From a virus, in the IMG/VR virus record IMGVR_UViG_3300020041_000157, positions 1 through 6,400 of that record: DNA of 6,400 nucleotides; one strand, given 5' to 3'. Position 1 is the stretch's first letter, and every line of letters begins with the position of its first letter. This document shows, piece after piece, positions 1 to 6,400 of this stretch. The notes under the pieces were generated by a model. It did not search any database and was not told the origin of the DNA. It was given only the letters and a program-made list of their open reading frames with translations. The position numbers were made by a program, and so were the translations under genes.

Positions 1-121
1 AAAAATATCAAACCATGCCAATGTGGCCTAAATGTCAAAGGGCCATACTCGCCCTGAATGAAATATTTAATATCAAGCGTTTTACCGAAATAATACTGAT
101 ATTGACGACGAACACGCTTTA
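1..121. repeat. Terminal redundancy from circular wrap-around; exact copy of 6280..6400
   Basis: Compared base by base, 1..121 equals 6280..6400 with no mismatch. The Rep reading frame runs seamlessly from 6280 into 6279, which implies a circular unit of 6,279 nt. Confidence 0.97.
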
Positions 122-509
122 TATGCGCTGAAATATCCGACTTCGAGAAAACAGGAACAAAAACACCGGTATCAACATACTTTTCGGGATTTAAATACCT
201 ATTGAACACATTTTCGTGTGAAAGGTTGTACTGCAAAGACTTCGACGGGTGTTCGTAAAAATACTTTTTCAAAATATTGAAGAAATCACAGCCGTTGTTT
301 ACAAACTTCACGTGCTTGTAAGAAAGAAATGTATTCGGATACTTATATGTAACAAAGAGCATGTATTTATGCTGCTTAGCTTCTTCCCTTAAACGCACAA
401 ACCAAGAGTTAGTTTGCTGACGAGAACATTCAACGCAATCACCGCAAGGCCGATATATCAACCGACCTTGCGTATCGCGTCTATTTGTAGGAACAGGATG
501 TAAACACAT
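1..509 (-). CDS. VP4: Replication initiator VP4 / phiX A-like HUH rolling-circle endonuclease, N-terminal part; continues across the circular junction into 6279..5916
   Basis: ATG at 509..507, hand-translated as MCLHPVPTNRRDTQGRLIYRPCGDCVECSRQQTNSWFVRLREE... This contains the Cys cluster (C-x19-PCGxCxxC) and the W..R...E pattern that I recall from the N-terminus of microvirus VP4. The frame stays open to position 1 and is in phase with the 5916..6317 ORF (509-38 = 471, a multiple of 3). The start lies 2 nt after the stop of the 197-aa ORF (TAATTATG). Confidence 0.9.
   Translation of the reverse strand, partial: MCLHPVPTNRRDTQGRLIYRPCGDCVECSRQQTNSWFVRLREEAKQHKYMLFVTYKYPNTFLSYKHVKFVNNGCDFFNILKKYFYEHPSKSLQYNLSHENVFNRYLNPEKYVDTGVFVPVFSKSDISAHIKRVRRQYQYYFGKTLDIKYFIQGEYGPLTFRPHWHGLIF
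67..77 (-). other. phiX174-origin-like core CTTGATATTAA; candidate Rep nick site on the viral strand (second copy at 6346..6356)
   Basis: The minus strand reads ACGCTTGATATTAAATATTTC. An 11-nt stretch is identical to the phiX174 ori core CAACTTG/ATATTAATAAC, including the G/A nick dinucleotide. It is on the coding strand and inside the Rep gene, as in phiX174. Confidence 0.4.
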
Positions 510-511
510 AA

Positions 512-1105
512 TTACTTAAATTGAAATCCATGAACATATCCAAACAAAGCAGAGAGTTCTTTCATGATAAACAAATGATACTTTGTAAGACATTCCAGCT
601 TGTCAACAACACGGGGATAGGAATCAACAAACTCTGAAATCCGATTAAAAATAACCTTAGAAGTGTCAGCGCAAAGATGCTGTAATGCATCATCTCCCTT
701 AACACTTTCAAGAAGAGACAAATCAAAGTCGGTTGGCTCAATGGAGAGCTTCAAGGAATGCAAAGAGGTGTCTAATGTAAAGAAGAATAAGTTCAAATAC
801 TCAAAGTATGAACGAGGCTTCAAAGCTACATTCATATACATGGAAGACAAGAGACCGTAATCATACGCCATAATATGAGAGATGAATCTATAATGCAAGA
901 ATCCCTCACGCGTCAAATGCGCAACAAGAACACCACGAGGATCGGAGGGGTCCTCTACCAAAGCATTATAAAACACGTAAAAAGACATTGGTGCAAAAAC
1001 GGGATTAAAACGATCATCATTGGCATTCAAAAGTATTTTTTGAATGCTGACAGGAAGCGAATCAAAAATCTCACTTCTCTTGGAGTTGATTGGTTGTTGT
1101 AACAT
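512..1105 (-). CDS. Hypothetical protein, 197 aa, function unknown; translationally coupled to Rep
   Basis: ATG at 1105..1103 and stop TAA at 514..512, 2 nt before the Rep ATG. The ORF is long, on the same strand as all other genes, and preceded by the only perfect Bacteroides-type promoter in the genome. I recognise no motif by eye. Confidence 0.7.
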   Translation of the reverse strand: MLQQPINSKRSEIFDSLPVSIQKILLNANDDRFNPVFAPMSFYVFYNALVEDPSDPRGVLVAHLTREGFLHYRFISHIMAYDYGLLSSMYMNVALKPRSYFEYLNLFFFTLDTSLHSLKLSIEPTDFDLSLLESVKGDDALQHLCADTSKVIFNRISEFVDSYPRVVDKLECLTKYHLFIMKELSALFGYVHGFQFK

Positions 1106-1132
1106 AACTTTATTGTTTTAAGGTTTATGTGC

Positions 1133-1164
1133 CAAAGATACGAATTAGTGTGCACACAAACAAA
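1133..1164 (-). promoter_or_regulatory. Bacteroides-type promoter: -33 TTTG (1164..1161), 20-nt spacer, -7 TATCTTTG (1140..1133)
   Basis: Minus strand: TTTG-TTTGTGTGCACACTAATTCG-TATCTTTG. This matches the published Bacteroides consensus of TTTG and TAnnTTTG. It ends 27 nt upstream of the ATG of the 197-aa ORF. Confidence 0.5.
1148..1157. repeat. Perfect 10-bp palindrome GTGTGCACAC within the promoter spacer; possible operator
   Basis: Read directly from the sequence; the 10-mer is its own reverse complement. It lies between the -33 and -7 elements. Confidence 0.5.
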
Positions 1165-1192
1165 TTAAAAGTGTTAAAAAAATCAAAATTTT

Positions 1193-1207
1193 TTCCGCTT
1201 CACGGAA
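1193..1207 (-). terminator. Weak stem-loop after the VP2 stop (TTCCG-tgaag-CGGAA) followed by an A/T run
   Basis: Minus strand: TGAGTATTTTAATTCCGTGAAGCGGAAAAAATTTTGATTTTTTT. The stem is only 5 bp, so this is a marginal intrinsic terminator. Confidence 0.25.
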
Positions 1208-1216
1208 TTAAAATAC

Positions 1217-2554
1217 TCATTTCGCCAAAGGCGTTTGCGTTACAGTTGTTGTACTGCCTCCGGTCATAACACCTTGTGAATCAAAATTTGTTGTCGTCGT
1301 TGTACCTGTATAACCTCCTGAGCGACCAATATTAGAATACGGAAACACAACGCCCGTAACAGCGTTGGCCACATTAACAAGATTTCCAAAAATACAATCA
1401 ACAATCGAAAGTTTACGATGCGTCTCCATTGAGCGCACCTGCTGTTTAAGATTATTAACCTGCTCATTAGGTCCTCCTGCATCAAGCCACGCATCAACTT
1501 GTGCCTCCATTGCCTTGAAATAATCGGAAGAGGAACTATAATGCTGGGCTTGAGTATCCATGAGACGCTTTTGAAAATCAAGCGTTTCTCGAAGCGTTTC
1601 AGCCTGCCAATTGGTAAGAGTGGTTTGCGCAATAGACTGTGCGATCTGAAAGTCTTTCTGTTCAATATCTTTCTTAATCCAAGAAATTTTCTTATCATTT
1701 ACAGAAATTAAAGAATCATTTACCTGCATACGAGACAGGGACTCATTAATAGCTTGACGACGTTCCTCTATCCATACACCACCTTTGTCTAAACCCATTT
1801 GATTTTGAGCAGCACGATAATCGGCATCAATAGAAGCGATACGCGCTTGTGCTTCTTTCAACTGAGAATCAACCCGAGTATTTTCTTTAAGCTCATCATA
1901 ATAATGCTCCTGTGAACGCTTCAAATGAGCATCGCGATACTCATCATAAATACGAGAAACAGAACCTATACCGTCTGTAAACATACCAAGCATTTCCAAC
2001 AACATTTGACCACCGGGAAGATTGGAAATACCAGCTCCCATATCACCAACAGAGGCAGAAGCAGCAGAGGCAGCGCCAGAGGTAGCGCCAGAACCAGCGG
2101 AAGCGGCAGCACCATTCATGGAGGTAGGACCTTGTGCACCACCGGTCATGGCCAAAGCGGGATTCAAGCCAGCCTGCTCGTACTGTCTAACCATTGCTTG
2201 CGGAGACTGATATTGATTATACATCTCTTCCTCCCAAAAACGTTGCTTCTCGGCCTCAGCAGAATTAAACGCTTGCGAATTAGCTTGCATTTCGGCATTA
2301 AAAGCTTGCGCGTCCTCCTGCATTTGCTTATTAAACTCCATTTGTTCAAGCATTGTTTTGTAATTATACTGGGCTTGAAAAGCATCAGAAGTAGAAATGC
2401 CTGCACCAGCCTCATATTCGTCATAATTGGCCGCAAGAGAACCTTGTATAAGGCTTGTTAACCAATCGGGGGTAACACCGGACGTTTCAGACAGAAAACG
2501 CCGATTACTGTCTTCAAACGATCTATTACGTCGCTTTCGTTGAAATATTCCCAT
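1217..2554 (-). CDS. VP2: Minor capsid / DNA pilot protein VP2 (phiX H-like), 445 aa
   Basis: Contains ..QAMVRQYEQAGLNPALAMTGG.., matching the AGLNPxL motif I recall as typical of microvirus VP2 pilot proteins. This is followed by a Gly/Ala/Ser-rich tract, a long heptad-like Q/E/K/R-rich region and a Thr-rich C-terminus. ATG at 2554..2552, stop TGA at 1219..1217. Confidence 0.85.
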   Translation of the reverse strand: MGIFQRKRRNRSFEDSNRRFLSETSGVTPDWLTSLIQGSLAANYDEYEAGAGISTSDAFQAQYNYKTMLEQMEFNKQMQEDAQAFNAEMQANSQAFNSAEAEKQRFWEEEMYNQYQSPQAMVRQYEQAGLNPALAMTGGAQGPTSMNGAAASAGSGATSGAASAASASVGDMGAGISNLPGGQMLLEMLGMFTDGIGSVSRIYDEYRDAHLKRSQEHYYDELKENTRVDSQLKEAQARIASIDADYRAAQNQMGLDKGGVWIEERRQAINESLSRMQVNDSLISVNDKKISWIKKDIEQKDFQIAQSIAQTTLTNWQAETLRETLDFQKRLMDTQAQHYSSSSDYFKAMEAQVDAWLDAGGPNEQVNNLKQQVRSMETHRKLSIVDCIFGNLVNVANAVTGVVFPYSNIGRSGGYTGTTTTTNFDSQGVMTGGSTTTVTQTPLAK

Positions 2555-2556
2555 AA

Positions 2557-2835
2557 CTACCTACGTCTTACAGGTTCATCTTCACCAAACAAAAAATCAA
2601 AGAAAGAGAGTACGGTGGAAGCAATAGCGGAAATCGGATTTGAAGCAGAAGCGAGATTAATCATTTGCTGCATCATATTCTTACTTTGTTCGTCCTCATT
2701 AGAGGCCAACTCCTCGGCATTGGACATAACAGACTGAGAGGTTAATTGCTGCATAGCCTGCATATTTTGCTGAACGTAAGAAGAAGACATTTTAAAGAAC
2801 GAAGAAACACCATTTGTCATAAATTGAGACGCCAT
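2557..2835 (-). CDS. Hypothetical protein, 92 aa, Q/M/S-rich; translationally coupled to VP2
   Basis: ATG at 2835..2833 and stop TAG at 2559..2557, 2 nt before the VP2 ATG (TAGTTATG). It fills an otherwise non-coding gap in a compact genome. No recognisable motif. Confidence 0.55.
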   Translation of the reverse strand: MASQFMTNGVSSFFKMSSSYVQQNMQAMQQLTSQSVMSNAEELASNEDEQSKNMMQQMINLASASNPISAIASTVLSFFDFLFGEDEPVRRR

Positions 2836-2878
2836 ATTTTCATGTTTTAAGGATTGAACATTTTTATTTATGTGTCAA

Positions 2879-2953
2879 TCCGCCGTACCATAGCGAGATA
2901 CGGCGGAGTGAATGCCGGTTGACCGTCATTCACCACCCGGCGACGACGTCGCC
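2879..2953. repeat. Three consecutive GC-rich stem-loops straddling the stop of the 120-aa ORF
   Basis: Hairpin 1: 2879..2887 tccgccgta pairs with 2899..2907 tacggcgga (9 bp, 11-nt loop). Hairpin 2: 2908..2914 gtgaatg pairs with 2927..2933 cattcac (7 bp, plus an inner cggt/accg pairing). Hairpin 3: 2939..2944 ggcgac pairs with 2948..2953 gtcgcc (6 bp, 3-nt loop). The region is clearly more GC-rich than the rest of the genome. Confidence 0.75.
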
Positions 2954-3288
2954 GTAGGTTGACTTGCAAGACCGGAACCGGGTTGATTGGAAGCAGCTGT
3001 ACCAACATTTGACTGTAAACCGATGTTAAGAGATTTAAAGCCCTTAGCAATCATCATCAAATCAAAATCGTTATTCACACGAAAACCGACTTGCGAGATT
3101 TCTTTCAAATCATTATAAACAATATCAGAAACATCATTCGGAATCGTCTGAGTGCTTATTATTTTATTAATATCAACAGCAAGCCCCGGAAGTGTTACGC
3201 CAAGAGTACAAGGCGGGACAACATTACGGCCATAAAACGTACGATTAGCACGGGAAATAATCTTATCAAGTTCTTTTTGGCTTTTCAT
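2926..3288 (-). CDS. Hypothetical protein, 120 aa; possible scaffolding or structural protein, unproven
   Basis: ATG at 3288..3286, stop TGA at 2928..2926. It lies between the capsid and pilot genes on the same strand. The C-terminus is a low-complexity G/S/T/P/A tail. I recognise no homology. Confidence 0.6.
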   Translation of the reverse strand: MKSQKELDKIISRANRTFYGRNVVPPCTLGVTLPGLAVDINKIISTQTIPNDVSDIVYNDLKEISQVGFRVNNDFDLMMIAKGFKSLNIGLQSNVGTAASNQPGSGLASQPTATSSPGGE

Positions 3289-3306
3289 AATAAATCATTT
3301 AATAGA

Positions 3307-3432
3307 TTAATCACTTGAATTATCTTTCTCTTGTTTTTCTTGACGTCTCCTTCTCGACCAGCGGACAAAATCCACAATCCAAGAGATATAGAAGAATACG
3401 CCCTTTAAAATCTTTTTTGTTTGCTCTTTCAT
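3307..3432 (-). CDS. Small ORF, 41 aa: MKEQTKKILKGVFFYISWIVDFVRWSRRRRQEKQEKDNSSD; candidate J/VP8-like basic packaging peptide or small membrane/lysis peptide
   Basis: Hand-translated; it falls below the ORF-track length cutoff. Its ATG (3432..3430) overlaps the VP1 stop TGA (3431..3429) as ATGA. Stop TAA at 3309..3307, 18 nt before the next gene. It has a hydrophobic core (GVFFYISWIVDFV) followed by an RRRR cluster. Without it, about 140 nt of this compact genome would be non-coding. Confidence 0.5.
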   Translation of the reverse strand: MKEQTKKILKGVFFYISWIVDFVRWSRRRRQEKQEKDNSSD

Positions 3433-5234
3433 AATTGACGACCTCTATATGGAACATTTTCTTTATGCGTATTTTTCAAATCACCAAGTGTAGGTATTAC
3501 GTACTCAGCAAGAGGTGTAACTTTCTTGAATGAGAAGAAGAAGTCAGCCCAAGTAACAGCGCCAAGAGAATAACCGGCCGCCAAAACAGAATCAAGTTCA
3601 TCAATGGCTATTTCAACAAAATCCTTATTGAGTTGAAAATTATCAAAATAACGCTGCAAAGTAAAGGCCGAAAGTGAACCGGTAGGCTGCAACAATCCGT
3701 GTACCTCGTCATCATGATACTTGTATTCTGAATATTGCTGCTGATAACCAAAATAATCAGTAGAAAAAATACTTTTAGGCGCTTCAACGGTAGAACCGGC
3801 AACTGCAAGGTAAGGATTCATCATCAATTCGGTTACAGTAACAGCCTGCTCGCCAAGTCCTTGTAAAAGAGGATTAGCAAAATCGCCTATCTTAGAACGA
3901 GACAAATAACGGCGAGTACCGCTACCATAATAAGCATGAGGAACAACAGAAGCGATAACCATAAGAAAGCCATGCTCGGTTGACGTAAATGTATCGAACA
4001 AACTATCTTTTCCATAACCATGCGTAGAACCCGCACGAGAACCGACAGCACCATTAAAAGGATTTCGATTGTATGTTTCACTTTCAGCGGAATATGTAGA
4101 GTTAGAAACACCTTTCGTATAAAGACCAAACTTTGAAGAACCCAAGAAAAGAGGTCTATCCAACAACGCATCAGAAGGTAAAATACCCCAAGTTGCCTTT
4201 ATCTGATCGGAATAACGCATACCAGCTATATTATTACGCTCCAACCAACGCTGCAAAACATTCGCAGAACGTATTTGCGGTATGGTTAAATTACTTTGAC
4301 CGTCAGGAATAGAAATAGAAGCAGGAGACATAGCCGCTTGCGGATAAAATGAGCAAGTGGTATAATAATCCTTTTCCCAGCAACGCTGATGTAAAGAAAA
4401 GAGAGTCGGTGTCTTCTGTTTATCGATTGCAGAAGACGAAGCATTTCCATAAAAAGCGAGAGACGATGAGATAGGCATAGAATAAGAAAGATGCCCAATT
4501 TCGGGTTCAGCCGTATATGCTTGGCCACCGGTAATTCCCAACAATGAGGCGGCATATTCATTAACCTCCGTATCTATGATATTGTTATATGGTAAAAACG
4601 ATATAGTATCATTTGCAGCACCATTTGAACGAACAAATAGCGGAGTTACAATATTCGGATTTCGATACCAATCGTCGTAAATCTTATGATACGCGAGAAA
4701 ACTTAACATGTTGGGAATTGTCACGAACTCGTTCATAGAGGCAGGCTCCGTTCCACCTTGAACCTTAATTCCCAAATAATCGGACAAAGAACCGGGCCCA
4801 AAGAATGGTAACTCCGATTCTGCCATATAATCGGTATCAAAACCATACGTGGTTTTTAATTCCTCGTAATTAGCATACTTAAAAGTCCGATGAATATTAG
4901 GCAAAACAGTCGGCCGATAAACTTGCGGGGAAAACGGATTATAAACGGGCATCGTCATAAAATCCTGCCAACCAGCCCAGAGAATACGATTCGGGACAAA
5001 AAATGCCTCCAAACGCATATCGATACGACCATAAAACTCAGTGGCCATAGGTGGTAGTTGAGCTTCACACATGTAGCCAAGCGAATATGTTTCATTCGGC
5101 AAAACTTCCTCTACAAGAACAGGTATCAATGTACCCGTCGTCATAGACAAAATGTTTTCAAATGACAAATCCATGCCCGAACGATTGGGAATATCGACGG
5201 GCTGCTGCTTAAAAATTTTCGATAAATGTGCCAT
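3429..5234 (-). CDS. VP1: Major capsid protein VP1 (phiX F-like), 601 aa
   Basis: The N-terminus ..PNRSGMDLSFENILSMTTGTLIPVLVEEVLPNETY.. matches the characteristic Microviridae capsid signature (RSxFDLS .. T..G.L.P). The size fits the longer Alpavirinae-type capsids. ATG at 5234..5232. Confidence 0.93.
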   Translation of the reverse strand: MAHLSKIFKQQPVDIPNRSGMDLSFENILSMTTGTLIPVLVEEVLPNETYSLGYMCEAQLPPMATEFYGRIDMRLEAFFVPNRILWAGWQDFMTMPVYNPFSPQVYRPTVLPNIHRTFKYANYEELKTTYGFDTDYMAESELPFFGPGSLSDYLGIKVQGGTEPASMNEFVTIPNMLSFLAYHKIYDDWYRNPNIVTPLFVRSNGAANDTISFLPYNNIIDTEVNEYAASLLGITGGQAYTAEPEIGHLSYSMPISSSLAFYGNASSSAIDKQKTPTLFSLHQRCWEKDYYTTCSFYPQAAMSPASISIPDGQSNLTIPQIRSANVLQRWLERNNIAGMRYSDQIKATWGILPSDALLDRPLFLGSSKFGLYTKGVSNSTYSAESETYNRNPFNGAVGSRAGSTHGYGKDSLFDTFTSTEHGFLMVIASVVPHAYYGSGTRRYLSRSKIGDFANPLLQGLGEQAVTVTELMMNPYLAVAGSTVEAPKSIFSTDYFGYQQQYSEYKYHDDEVHGLLQPTGSLSAFTLQRYFDNFQLNKDFVEIAIDELDSVLAAGYSLGAVTWADFFFSFKKVTPLAEYVIPTLGDLKNTHKENVPYRGRQL

Positions 5235-5302
5235 AATATTTTTATTGGTTAAACATTGAATATCGCAAAAGAAGAACTCATATTCGTTAATCCCAAATGG
5301 AT

Positions 5303-5350
5303 ATTATCAAATAATGTTAAATAAAGCGTGATTTAACATTATTCAATAAT
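5303..5350. repeat. Long hairpin in the Rep-VP1 intergenic region: 13-bp perfect stem, 8-nt loop, plus a 5-bp extension
   Basis: 5310..5322 aataatgttaaat pairs with 5331..5343 atttaacattatt, with loop aaagcgtg. After a 2x2 mismatch, attat (5303..5307) pairs with ataat (5346..5350). It sits in the largest non-coding region (5235..5415). Confidence 0.8.
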
Positions 5351-5415
5351 CCTACATTTGTTTTTAACCAATATTAAATTCTATAAAGGCGATACAATGA
5401 CAAACCAAAAAAACA

Positions 5416-5886
5416 TTAATAGGCTAGAAGTGAGGAAGCCGTACACTCGTCGAAAACAGCTCGGGCAATAGAATAGTAGGCGTTCGGCTTGGCTCGTCGT
5501 AAACGTAAGCGAGCAAACTCTTCATAAAATTTCTTGTAAAGCGAATCCACATCACACGGCGACGCATCAACCAATTCTGAGGCCGACTTTCCAAGTAACT
5601 CAGAAAATTTTTCCTCAAAAAGTATTCGTAAGTAACGATCCTTAAATCGAACAAATTTTGCCGCAGTATCGCGGATATAAGAAGAACAATCAACCGATCG
5701 AAAACGGGCAAAGTCTTTAACTTCGTGTCCATATTTTAAAACTTTATTATTGAAAGATGAAATGCGAGAGGATATAACATTCACAACGTACTCGGCGCCG
5801 TCATACATATATTTACGCTTCAATTCGAGACGTTTGTATAAGATCTTAACACGCGGCACCAATCGGTCAGAGAAATATCGAGGCAA
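5416..5886 (-). CDS. VP4: C-terminal domain of replication initiator VP4, encoded in the -1 frame relative to the upstream Rep ORF; probably expressed only as a fusion
   Basis: The listed start is TTG, not ATG. This frame is open upstream to 5940 and so overlaps the end of the frame-0 Rep ORF across the T9 run. It reads ..FFYRFVNKHGKLIQLLLPRYFSDRL.., resembling the G-x-x-x-LPRYY-type motif I recall from the C-terminal half of microvirus VP4. Stop TAA at 5418..5416. Confidence 0.7.
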   Translation of the reverse strand: MPRYFSDRLVPRVKILYKRLELKRKYMYDGAEYVVNVISSRISSFNNKVLKYGHEVKDFARFRSVDCSSYIRDTAAKFVRFKDRYLRILFEEKFSELLGKSASELVDASPCDVDSLYKKFYEEFARLRLRRAKPNAYYSIARAVFDECTASSLLAY

Positions 5887-5915
5887 TAAAAGTTGTATAA
5901 GTTTCCCATGTTTAT

Positions 5916-6400
5916 TTACAAACCGGTAAAAAAAAACTTGTTATACAAAACCTTAAACTCTTCAAAATCTTGAACGTTCTCTATCTGCTGGCGCAGATCG
6001 GGGTGAAGCTTCATGAGCTTCTCGAAATACGCATTACCAATCCCCTTCGACATTACACGCGGAGGTTTCTGGATATAGCCAGCTTGAACATAGGGTGTTT
6101 GTTCGTCAAGATGCTTACAAACATACTTTGCCACATACTCGATTGTACTGTCAGTGCTTGCACGATCAGACAGGTCAACCTCTTTTATGTCAATCGCAGC
6201 GTCTTTATGATTGACGTCGGAAAAATGCGAAAGCCAATCATTGTATATCAAATCCTTGACCTGAGCAAAATCCTCATTTAAAAATATCAAACCATGCCAA
6301 TGTGGCCTAAATGTCAAAGGGCCATACTCGCCCTGAATGAAATATTTAATATCAAGCGTTTTACCGAAATAATACTGATATTGACGACGAACACGCTTTA
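5916..6400 (-). CDS. VP4: Replication initiator VP4, central catalytic part (6280..6400 duplicates 1..121); frame-0 stop TAA at 5918..5916
   Basis: HUH motif HWHGLIF (H-W-H at 6302..6294). Double-tyrosine motif EYVAKYVCK (6137..6114), nearly identical to the phiX174 A active-site YVAKYVNK. An SKGIG motif lies downstream. The M of the listed 133-aa ORF is actually an internal TTG (Leu). The full frame-0 product from 509 across the junction to 5916 is 873 nt, or 290 aa. Confidence 0.92.
   Translation of the reverse strand, partial: KRVRRQYQYYFGKTLDIKYFIQGEYGPLTFRPHWHGLIFLNEDFAQVKDLIYNDWLSHFSDVNHKDAAIDIKEVDLSDRASTDSTIEYVAKYVCKHLDEQTPYVQAGYIQKPPRVMSKGIGNAYFEKLMKLHPDLRQQIENVQDFEEFKVLYNKFFFTGL
5928..5936 (-). 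other. T9 homopolymer (A9 on plus strand): candidate slippery or recoding site, or a homopolymer sequencing error, at the Rep frame junction
   Basis: The viral strand reads AAC AAG TTT TTT TTT ACC GGT TTG TAA. The frame-0 stop follows 3 codons after the run, and the -1 frame is open through the run. By eye this is the longest homopolymer in the genome. Confidence 0.6.
6280..6400. repeat. Terminal redundancy from circular wrap-around; exact copy of 1..121
   Basis: Same comparison as for 1..121. This is not an independent element; the window is simply longer than the genome. Confidence 0.97.

Follow-up and report, generated by a model that had tools for sequence, protein, structure and literature searches.

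A conserved T9 run that splits the replication-initiator gene of a gut microvirus is a probable recoding site

The window analyzed here, which is the whole 6,400-nucleotide (nt) stretch at positions 1 to 6,400 of IMG/VR record IMGVR_UViG_3300020041_000157, is the complete circular genome of a microvirus, a small gut single-stranded DNA (ssDNA) phage, in which the gene for the replication initiator (Rep, VP4) is divided between two reading frames at a run of nine T residues. Our comparative analyses indicate that this T9 run is probably a genuine, inherited recoding site in the replication-initiator gene. An earlier note on this DNA had proposed that either a −1 ribosomal slip or the addition of one U by RNA polymerase joins the two frames, and this proposal is now supported by the conservation of T9 among relatives, by homologues that encode the corresponding protein in a single open reading frame (ORF) and by purifying selection on the −1 frame. 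As we envisage it, standard decoding would produce a 290-amino acid (aa) protein that contains the Cys cluster, the HUH motif and the catalytic tyrosines and lacks both an LPRY motif and the 170-residue C-terminal region, and a fraction of expression events would shift to the −1 frame inside the run and so produce a 457-aa Rep with the junction ..NKFFFYRFVNK...

The first 121 nt of the window recur exactly, in direct orientation, as its last 121 nt (1-121 = 6280-6400), as expected of an assembly overlap, and the genome is therefore circularly closed, with a unit of 6279 nt and with the Rep gene spanning the junction. Every long ORF of the window is carried by the minus strand, to which the coordinates below refer. 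The 0-frame Rep ORF begins at an ATG at 509..507, runs to position 1, resumes at 6279 and terminates at a TAA at 5918..5916, giving 290 codons. On the linear window its 5′ part thus lies at 1..509, translated around the circle through the terminal repeat, and its 3′ part at 5916..6400, with the HWH of the HUH motif at 6302..6294, the two Tyr codons of the YVAKY motif at 6137..6135 and 6125..6123, and the stop. The T9 run, the proposed slip site and a U9 run in the mRNA, is located at 5928..5936 (minus-strand letters TTTTTTTTT at 5936..5928) and encodes FFF; across it the 0 frame reads ..VLYNK FFF TGL TAA, which places the stop three codons past the run. The −1 frame is closed just upstream of the run by a TAA at 5941..5943 (TGA in relatives) and is open from 5940 to a TAA at 5418..5416. 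This −1-frame continuation (5416..5940) specifies residues 288-457 of the fused protein together with the stop, and adds 167 codons to the 290-aa ORF. Because of the upstream stop, the two Rep frames overlap by only 24 nt (8 codons; 5919-5940), and the T9 run is the sole slippery element inside this overlap. The addition of one T yields a 457-aa ORF with the junction FFFYRFVNK, in the context ..YNKFFFYRFVNKHGK..; without it the product is 290 aa. The site thus consists of a sense-strand A/T run of at least nine residues, within an overlap of two ORFs, that joins the frames upon gain of a single nucleotide. The position of the run, the extents of both frames and the two product lengths given in the earlier note all match the sequence exactly, although the 457-aa arithmetic requires a circular genome, a point that had been left implicit.

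Profile searches place the protein among replication initiators, with matches to Pfam PF23343 (REP_ORF2-G2P; 37.6 bits against a cut-off of 27.8, E = 2.9e-9) and to PHROG 942, "replication initiation protein" (E = 5e-33). As previously noted from the letters, the characteristic residues are all in the 0-frame ORF and prove to be invariant in the family: the Cys cluster, of zinc type, comprises C22, C25 and C28, and the HUH motif RPHWHGLIF (H163, H165) and the tyrosine motif EYVAKYVCK (Y218, Y222) are invariant in two Rep alignments. The PHROG 942 envelope extends further on the fused protein (1-326 compared with 1-259), but the score is not higher (111 compared with 116 bits), and this difference was not counted as evidence.

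Homologues of the fused protein are indeed single ORFs, a point that the earlier note had suggested checking. A search of the 457-aa sequence against 5.8 billion proteins recovered P0002 and P0003, single 456-aa ORFs with 57% identity and 100% query coverage that are collinear with the fused Rep. At the junction both have KYFFYRF, encoded over an in-frame T8, and the corresponding residues of P0028 are KYFSYRF; likewise, the outgroup DNA L019 contains AAA TAT TTT TTT TAT, again an in-frame T8. Two further Reps, P0005 (408 aa) and P0006 (434 aa), cover 69% and 86% of the query and also cross the junction in the alignment. Closer to the window, P0001, a 290-aa protein with 94% identity, represents a 90%-identity cluster of 420 sequences, and the 15 members listed comprise ten 290-aa proteins, one 241-aa fragment ending in FFFTDL, two 167-aa C-terminal ORFs and two 457-aa proteins. 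The comparison indicates that the ancestral state of this Rep is a single ORF. The likely history, as judged from these alignments, is that a Tyr-to-Phe change gave T10 and that one T was then lost.

The earlier note had described the 290-aa product as a catalytic-core protein, but a complete core it is not. Nine aligned Reps that share 21-57% identity have only 23 invariant columns, and these include the three Cys, the two HUH His and the two Tyr, as well as P303 and Y305 of an LPRY motif (L302 P303 R304 Y305 in fused numbering; 5875..5886) that lies after the break and is encoded in the −1 frame only. Even a 278-aa gokushovirus-type Rep, P0008, whose gene adjoins a Phage_ORF5 gene, aligns past the junction and contains MPKYY at the place of LPRY. 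The family motif (L/M)P(R/K)Y downstream of the tyrosines is hence present in the −1 frame and absent from the 0-frame product alone. By this comparison the 290-aa product retains the catalytic residues and yet is missing an invariant element found in even the shortest family members, and the shifted, full-length product is therefore likely to be the essential one. The view that the C-terminal part is the normal C terminus of microvirus VP4 proteins holds for its first ~40 residues, which carry the family-wide LPRY, but not for the remainder. Those ~140 residues are clade-specific, with five representatives in 1.84 billion sequences at 50% clustering, and profile searches found no Pfam or PHROG family of its own for the C-terminal part. 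The AlphaFold model is poor over this part (mean predicted local distance difference test [pLDDT] 60, and below 50 for most of 288-457), and a PDB profile search returned chance matches to dehydrogenases only.

The state of the run was compared across 23 ingroup loci with 88-99.9% nt identity in Rep, drawn from IMG/VR, ENA and NCBI metagenome assemblies and from Logan assemblies of SRA runs, and representing at least 15 datasets. In 18 of these loci, the window included, the run is T9 and out of frame; in four (L007, L018 and the sister runs L016/L017) it is T10 and in frame; and in one (L002) it is A+T9, AAAATTTTTTTTT, in frame and reading KIFFYRF. Neither T8 nor T11 occurs among the 23. The ratio of T9 to T10 thus rests on these 23 loci together with the 15 listed proteins of the 420-member P0001 cluster. 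Whether relatives would keep the T-run with split frames had been posed as a question by the earlier note, and the same 18 loci do so, with T9 and both stops retained and with the downstream ORF under coding selection (see below). Conserved 9-runs in ORF overlaps are a published criterion for functional slippage sites (Baranov et al. 2005; PMC1088944). Where the same or a closely related strain was recovered in different archives, the run length is the same (L020/L021, 97% identical; L022/L024, 99.9% identical), and the T10 pair L016/L017 also agrees. An intergenic T-run just after the Rep stop (5407-5413), ~500 nt from the slip site, provides a control, as it is T7, T8, T9 or T10 in relatives. 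Thus, homopolymers drift in these genomes when unconstrained, by either real hypermutability or assembly noise, whereas the Rep run is held at T9, with an occasional T10. In addition, the three TTT codons of the run are never TTC, whereas 12 of 19 other conserved Phe codons vary between TTT and TTC (p about 0.05, a modest difference). On these comparisons, the T-run looks protected.

Selection on the −1 frame was assessed as the ratio of nonsynonymous to synonymous change (dN/dS) by the Nei-Gojobori method, with T9 genomes only and with confidence intervals from a codon bootstrap. The N-terminal Rep ORF has a dN/dS of 0.06. Beyond the break, each of the 18 T9 genomes has an uninterrupted −1 frame of 167 codons that is free of indels and ends at a shared stop. 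Over codons 295-352 its dN/dS is 0.096 (confidence interval 0.043-0.173; proportions of synonymous [pS] and nonsynonymous [pN] differences 0.243 and 0.028), compared with 1.19 and 3.6 in the other two frames; over codons 288-352 it is 0.09, and within a clade of eight genomes that are all T9 it is 0.108. The pattern extends to the run. The 14 codons that follow it in T9 genomes read Y(TAT/TAC) R(CGA/CGG/CGT) F(TTT/TTC) V/M N(AAT/AAC) K H/R G(GGG/GGA) K(AAA/AAG) L I/V Q L L, with seven codons that vary synonymously and three conservative replacements. Read in the 0 frame, the identical substitutions would cause T/I, D/G/V and L/S replacements ahead of a stop that invariably falls at codon 291 (TAA in seven T9 genomes, TGA in 11). 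The strong purifying selection on the −1 frame, as read from these substitutions, begins at the T-run itself. No conserved start codon follows the run in the 18 T9 genomes: the codon after YRF is GTA in seven, including the window, GTG in seven and ATG in four, and the first downstream TTG (5886) is TTA in L023. Residues that are unreachable from any start are thus under protein-level selection, which argues that ribosomes enter the −1 frame coming from the upstream ORF. On this comparative evidence, the −1 frame is probably translated in T9 genomes, with entry from upstream at the run and not from an internal start. In the distal codons 354-453 the naive dN/dS of the Rep frame is about 1. Here synonymous change is depressed by a conserved second, overlapping frame (described below), and pN (0.061) is far below the neutral pS (0.24-0.34).

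The in-frame alleles do not form a single lineage. In an outgroup-rooted tree from the first 978 nt, the T10 locus L007 is sister to the T9 locus L009 (93% bootstrap) and the T10 pair L016/L017 is sister to the T9 locus L010 (89%); the A+T9 locus L002 groups with the T9 locus L001 (67%), and L018 stands apart. In L002 (IMGVR_UViG_3300022758_000234, locus ~2853) the sequence is GAC AAA ATT TTT TTT TAT (KIFFY), with an A inserted beside an intact T9. This distribution indicates at least three to four independent restorations of frame within the T9 background, one of them by insertion of an A. The full-length frame is therefore acceptable or favored, which argues that the C-terminal part matters. 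T9 and T10 alleles are both viable. A run of nine to ten would be expected to slip both ways. T10 alleles would then yield both proteins as well, with the ratio reversed, so that each allele would make the two in different proportions, as in Thermus dnaX; bidirectional slippage of this kind would account for alleles that are viable and interconvert. An extension of this idea, which we put forward tentatively and consider rather unlikely, is that the T-run acts as a tunable switch in which T9/T10 interconversion sets opposite ratios of truncated to full-length Rep, so that this ssDNA phage of 6 kb would possess a locus of contingency type. The truncated Rep, with nuclease motifs and without LPRY and the C domain, could have a role of its own, for example, as a regulator or inhibitor by analogy with A* or the OrfA of insertion sequences (IS).

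As to how the shift would occur, two routes lead to the same 457-aa protein. In the favored one, RNA polymerase would realign on the A9 template and generate U10 (or U7) transcripts, as at mxiE of Shigella flexneri. As an alternative or in addition, two tRNA-Phe would slip in tandem by −1 on U_UUU_UUU. Indeed, a heptamer of the form X_XXY_YYZ that is a perfect U_UUU_UUU is present in the 0-frame phase (codons UUU UUU) at 5934..5928. We consider the transcriptional route to be roughly twice as likely as the ribosomal one because no stimulator was found and the run is long; in many bacterial genomes selection against A/T runs becomes evident once they reach nine, the length from which bacterial transcriptional slippage is also evident (PMC1088944). 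The absence of a convincing downstream hairpin, already remarked upon in the earlier note, was confirmed by folding of the window and of its relatives. The 116 nt downstream of the run fold less stably than shuffled sequences (z = +1.78), no downstream stem is shared among relatives, and the minimum free energies of the individual genomes are −2.4 to −6.9 kcal/mol. Upstream of the run, a Shine-Dalgarno (SD)-like stimulator was not evident, as the AAGG there is not conserved and is AAAG in many relatives, and the upstream fold merely pairs the U-run with A-rich sequence (z = −1.4). No terminator-like site was found at the run. The lack of downstream structure is in keeping with slippage on a run of this length, as no structure is required there.

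The explanation that the earlier note had called parsimonious is a sequencing or assembly error, in which the true genome is T10 and contains a single 457-aa ORF. Homopolymers are error-prone, T10 is read in some relatives, and split microvirus genes are usually treated as assembly frameshifts and patched with Ns (PMC9239249). However, such an error would be expected to give inconsistent run lengths with an in-frame majority, and the counts (18 T9, four T10 and one A+T9) come from contigs of many studies, assemblers and archives, with the same length recurring in the same strain across datasets. Moreover, symmetric noise around T10 would give both T11 and T8, and neither was seen; the gene tables of these contigs show no other frameshifted gene. 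We therefore reject the miscall and regard an artefact as very unlikely. Even less probable, in our assessment, is decay of the gene, in which a 1-nt deletion inactivated a dispensable C-terminal extension, leaving the 290-aa protein as the sole Rep and the downstream frame as a remnant. Such a reading would accord with the length of gokushovirus-type Reps, which are only about 280 aa (P0008), with the near lack of homologues outside the clade for most of the C-terminal part and with the naive dN/dS of about 1 in its distal portion. Yet none of the 18 diverged T9 genomes has a stop or indel in the 167 codons, codons 288-352 have a dN/dS of 0.09, and the invariant LPRY, which short Reps also possess, lies after the break. 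The distal ratio is itself inflated by the conserved overlapping frame, and pN there is 0.06 against a neutral pS of 0.24-0.34.

Two other explanations accept T9 as real, and we find each of them improbable. The gene may have undergone fission into a 290-aa nuclease and a separate protein of about 155-167 aa, made by termination-reinitiation or translational coupling at RTGA or at the TTG at 5886, and acting in trans. Gene callers do annotate the 167-aa ORF (P0022, P0023 and P0027). Against this, the codon on the 0-frame stop is GTA in seven T9 genomes, the next TTG is TTA in one and no start is conserved. Moreover, the Y-R-F codons and codons 291-301 before the TTG, none of which can be reached from those starts, vary almost only synonymously in the −1 frame, and the 24-nt stretch contains no other frame overlap or slippery element. 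With a similarly small chance, the run may instead undergo phase variation at the DNA level, flipping between T9 and T10 in replication to give mixed populations in which only T10 makes full-length Rep and no recoding of RNA or protein takes place; T9 genomes would then be frequent mutants, hitchhikers or carriers of another isoform program. Long runs are known as hypermutable (PMC1088944), and the in-frame alleles are nested among T9 genomes at least three to four times. But 18 of 23 assemblies have T9 as their consensus, as do all members of an eight-genome clade that has diverged by about 12% at the nt level. Because Rep works within a cell that a single genome has infected, an unrecoded T9 genome would miss the LPRY region in almost every infection, and selection would be expected to hold T10 in the majority, contrary to what is observed.

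Several observations weigh against recoding at the T9 run as well. In 11 of the 18 T9 genomes (L004, L009, L010, L012-L014 and L020-L024) the −1-frame codon on the 0-frame stop is ATG or GTG, forming RTGA at 5916-5921, the classic arrangement for coupling and one that supports fission; the window and six others have GTA. This overlap may represent an emerging start codon and thus a step toward true gene fission. The intergenic T-run is T7 in one and T8 in the other of L022 and L024, which are 99.9% identical, a difference that is also in line with phase variation, and homopolymer calls, or the homopolymers themselves, are thus somewhat labile. Because the in-frame alleles are scattered in the tree, selection on the C-terminal part could derive partly from in-frame phases. 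The known stimulators of −1 programmed ribosomal frameshifting, a hairpin or pseudoknot 5-9 nt downstream or an SD-like element, were not found at the heptamer, and some AT-rich bacteria appear to suppress slippage (PMC1088944). Finally, a lone T9 run is not improbable at this base composition: in first-order Markov simulations, 51% of genomes of such composition hold a 9-run somewhere, and the rarity of T9 was dropped as an argument. What goes beyond chance is the placement of the run in the 8-codon overlap of frames that rebuild a homologous single ORF, together with its conservation among relatives.

The microvirus phiX174 offers a looser parallel, as its gene A is a Rep gene that yields two proteins of different length with shared sequence. 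Its A* protein arises by in-frame internal initiation and corresponds to the C-terminal part. The parallel to A/A* drawn in the earlier note stands as an analogy of outcome, in that two isoforms would be made, but not of kind: here the short form is N-terminal and ends at the 0-frame stop, the long form needs a change of frame, and the mechanism and the retained end thus differ. No sequence similarity to phiX174 A was seen beyond the HUH superfamily. Tamas et al. 2008 reportedly found that frameshifted genes of insect endosymbionts are rescued by polymerase infidelity at poly(A) tracts. As in the microvirus, a 1-nt indel is tolerated there since slippage restores the frame in some transcripts, and run length varies by strain; in contrast, that case is a rescue of decay under weak selection, whereas the out-of-frame microvirus allele is the conserved majority in an essential gene under strong selection.

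The closest systems in mechanism are mxiE and the IS sites with A9 or T9 runs, and the closest in outcome is dnaX. In S. flexneri, the longer mxiE product is made when one U is inserted at a U-run, which fuses mxiEa to mxiEb (PMC1088944, PMC7762205). As proposed for the microvirus, overlapping ORFs are joined there by a nontemplated U, the standard product is short, the long one needs the slip and no RNA structure is required. However, mxiE encodes an AraC-type bacterial regulator on a plasmid and its slippage was shown experimentally, whereas the case for the microvirus HUH Rep is comparative; also, an in-frame (T10) allele circulates in the microviruses. In dnaX, long and short isoforms of a replication protein are produced by a slip on a homopolymer or heptamer, at the transcriptional level in Thermus thermophilus (A9) and by −1 ribosomal frameshifting in Escherichia coli, and the same outcome can thus be reached at either level (PMC1088944). 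There, the long form comes from the templated frame and the short form from the slip, an arrangement that matches the T10 allele and not T9. In addition, strong stimulators are present in E. coli dnaX, namely a hairpin and, upstream, an SD-like element, none of which was found in the microvirus Rep. IS transposases of the OrfA/OrfAB type are likewise DNA-processing enzymes of mobile elements that are split over frames, with the slippery run conserved along with the ORF organization (PMC1088944). They differ in belonging to other enzyme families, in using A-runs or A_AAA_AAG and in having a DNA-binding regulator as the upstream product, where the microvirus upstream product contains catalytic residues. 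Full-text searches of a paper library returned no report of slippage or programmed frameshifting in a Microviridae gene or in an ssDNA-phage replication initiator.

The second frame that overlaps the distal C-terminal part is a 102-codon ORF (MDTKLKTLPVF..; basic, pI 10.5) at 5424..5732, located in the Rep 0 frame. It is open in 21 of 21 full-length relatives, and its start and stop are the same in the 57%-identity outgroup L019. Its dN/dS is 0.27 in its own frame, compared with 0.96 in the Rep frame, and from Rep codon 361 onward variable sites are no longer concentrated at the third codon position of Rep. Length by itself carries no significance, since 20-26% of codon shuffles contain an open stretch as long; support for the embedded ORF hence comes from the substitution pattern and the conserved boundaries only. 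No PHROG match to it was found. On these grounds it is a candidate overlapping gene, like phiX174 B, K and E, and separate from the recoding site. Under the switch idea raised above, early termination of the truncated Rep might free its start. An 89-aa predicted protein on a 1967-nt ENA contig, P0029, opens with residues of the embedded frame (MDTKLKTLPVFDRLIVLLISAILRQNLFDL) and then switches to the C-terminal frame of Rep (LGKSPSELVD..LLAY), which implies a variant in which a deletion of ~50 nt has joined both frames; its source could be a defective genome or a misassembly.

A further locus, L015 (OLYI01007499.1, 435-1135), is only 84% identical to Rep residues 1-244 and has a stop in the 0 frame after 114 codons. 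Its junction region shows no relation to that of the other loci, and the contig may hold a divergent, chimeric or degraded copy. Elsewhere in the genome, a Phage_F-type major capsid protein is encoded at 3429-5234 (minus), and the long minus-strand ORFs also include one of 445 aa. The capsid protein VP1 is at most 50% identical to those of unclassified fecal microviruses. The Rep region gave no match to GenBank phages by blastn in distant mode, and a search with a Rep profile for prophages or hosts in 185,579 genomes gave none that was confirmed. Three other minus-strand ORFs are called at syntenic positions in all related contigs: a 197-aa ORF directly upstream of Rep (512-1105) and a 92-aa ORF (2557-2835), both with no PHROG match at E <= 0.1, and a 120-aa ORF (2926-3288) with a weak match to a PHROG family that has no assigned function (E = 0.029).

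Homopolymer recoding is already known in bacteria, IS elements and some RNA viruses. A large microvirus survey treated split genes as assembly errors and inserted Ns (PMC9239249), and our comparisons indicate that at least one such break is a conserved, selected feature and not an assembly error. Annotation pipelines should therefore flag conserved frameshifts at runs of at least nine, and neither merge nor discard the genes that contain them. As T9, T10 and A+T9 alleles occur naturally, this Rep gene provides a compact system in which to separate transcriptional from ribosomal slippage and to probe a truncated HUH nuclease. If true, recoding at the T9 run would be a new route to two Rep isoforms in rolling-circle replicons, beside internal initiation, as in phiX174 and f1, and splicing, as in eukaryotic ssDNA viruses.

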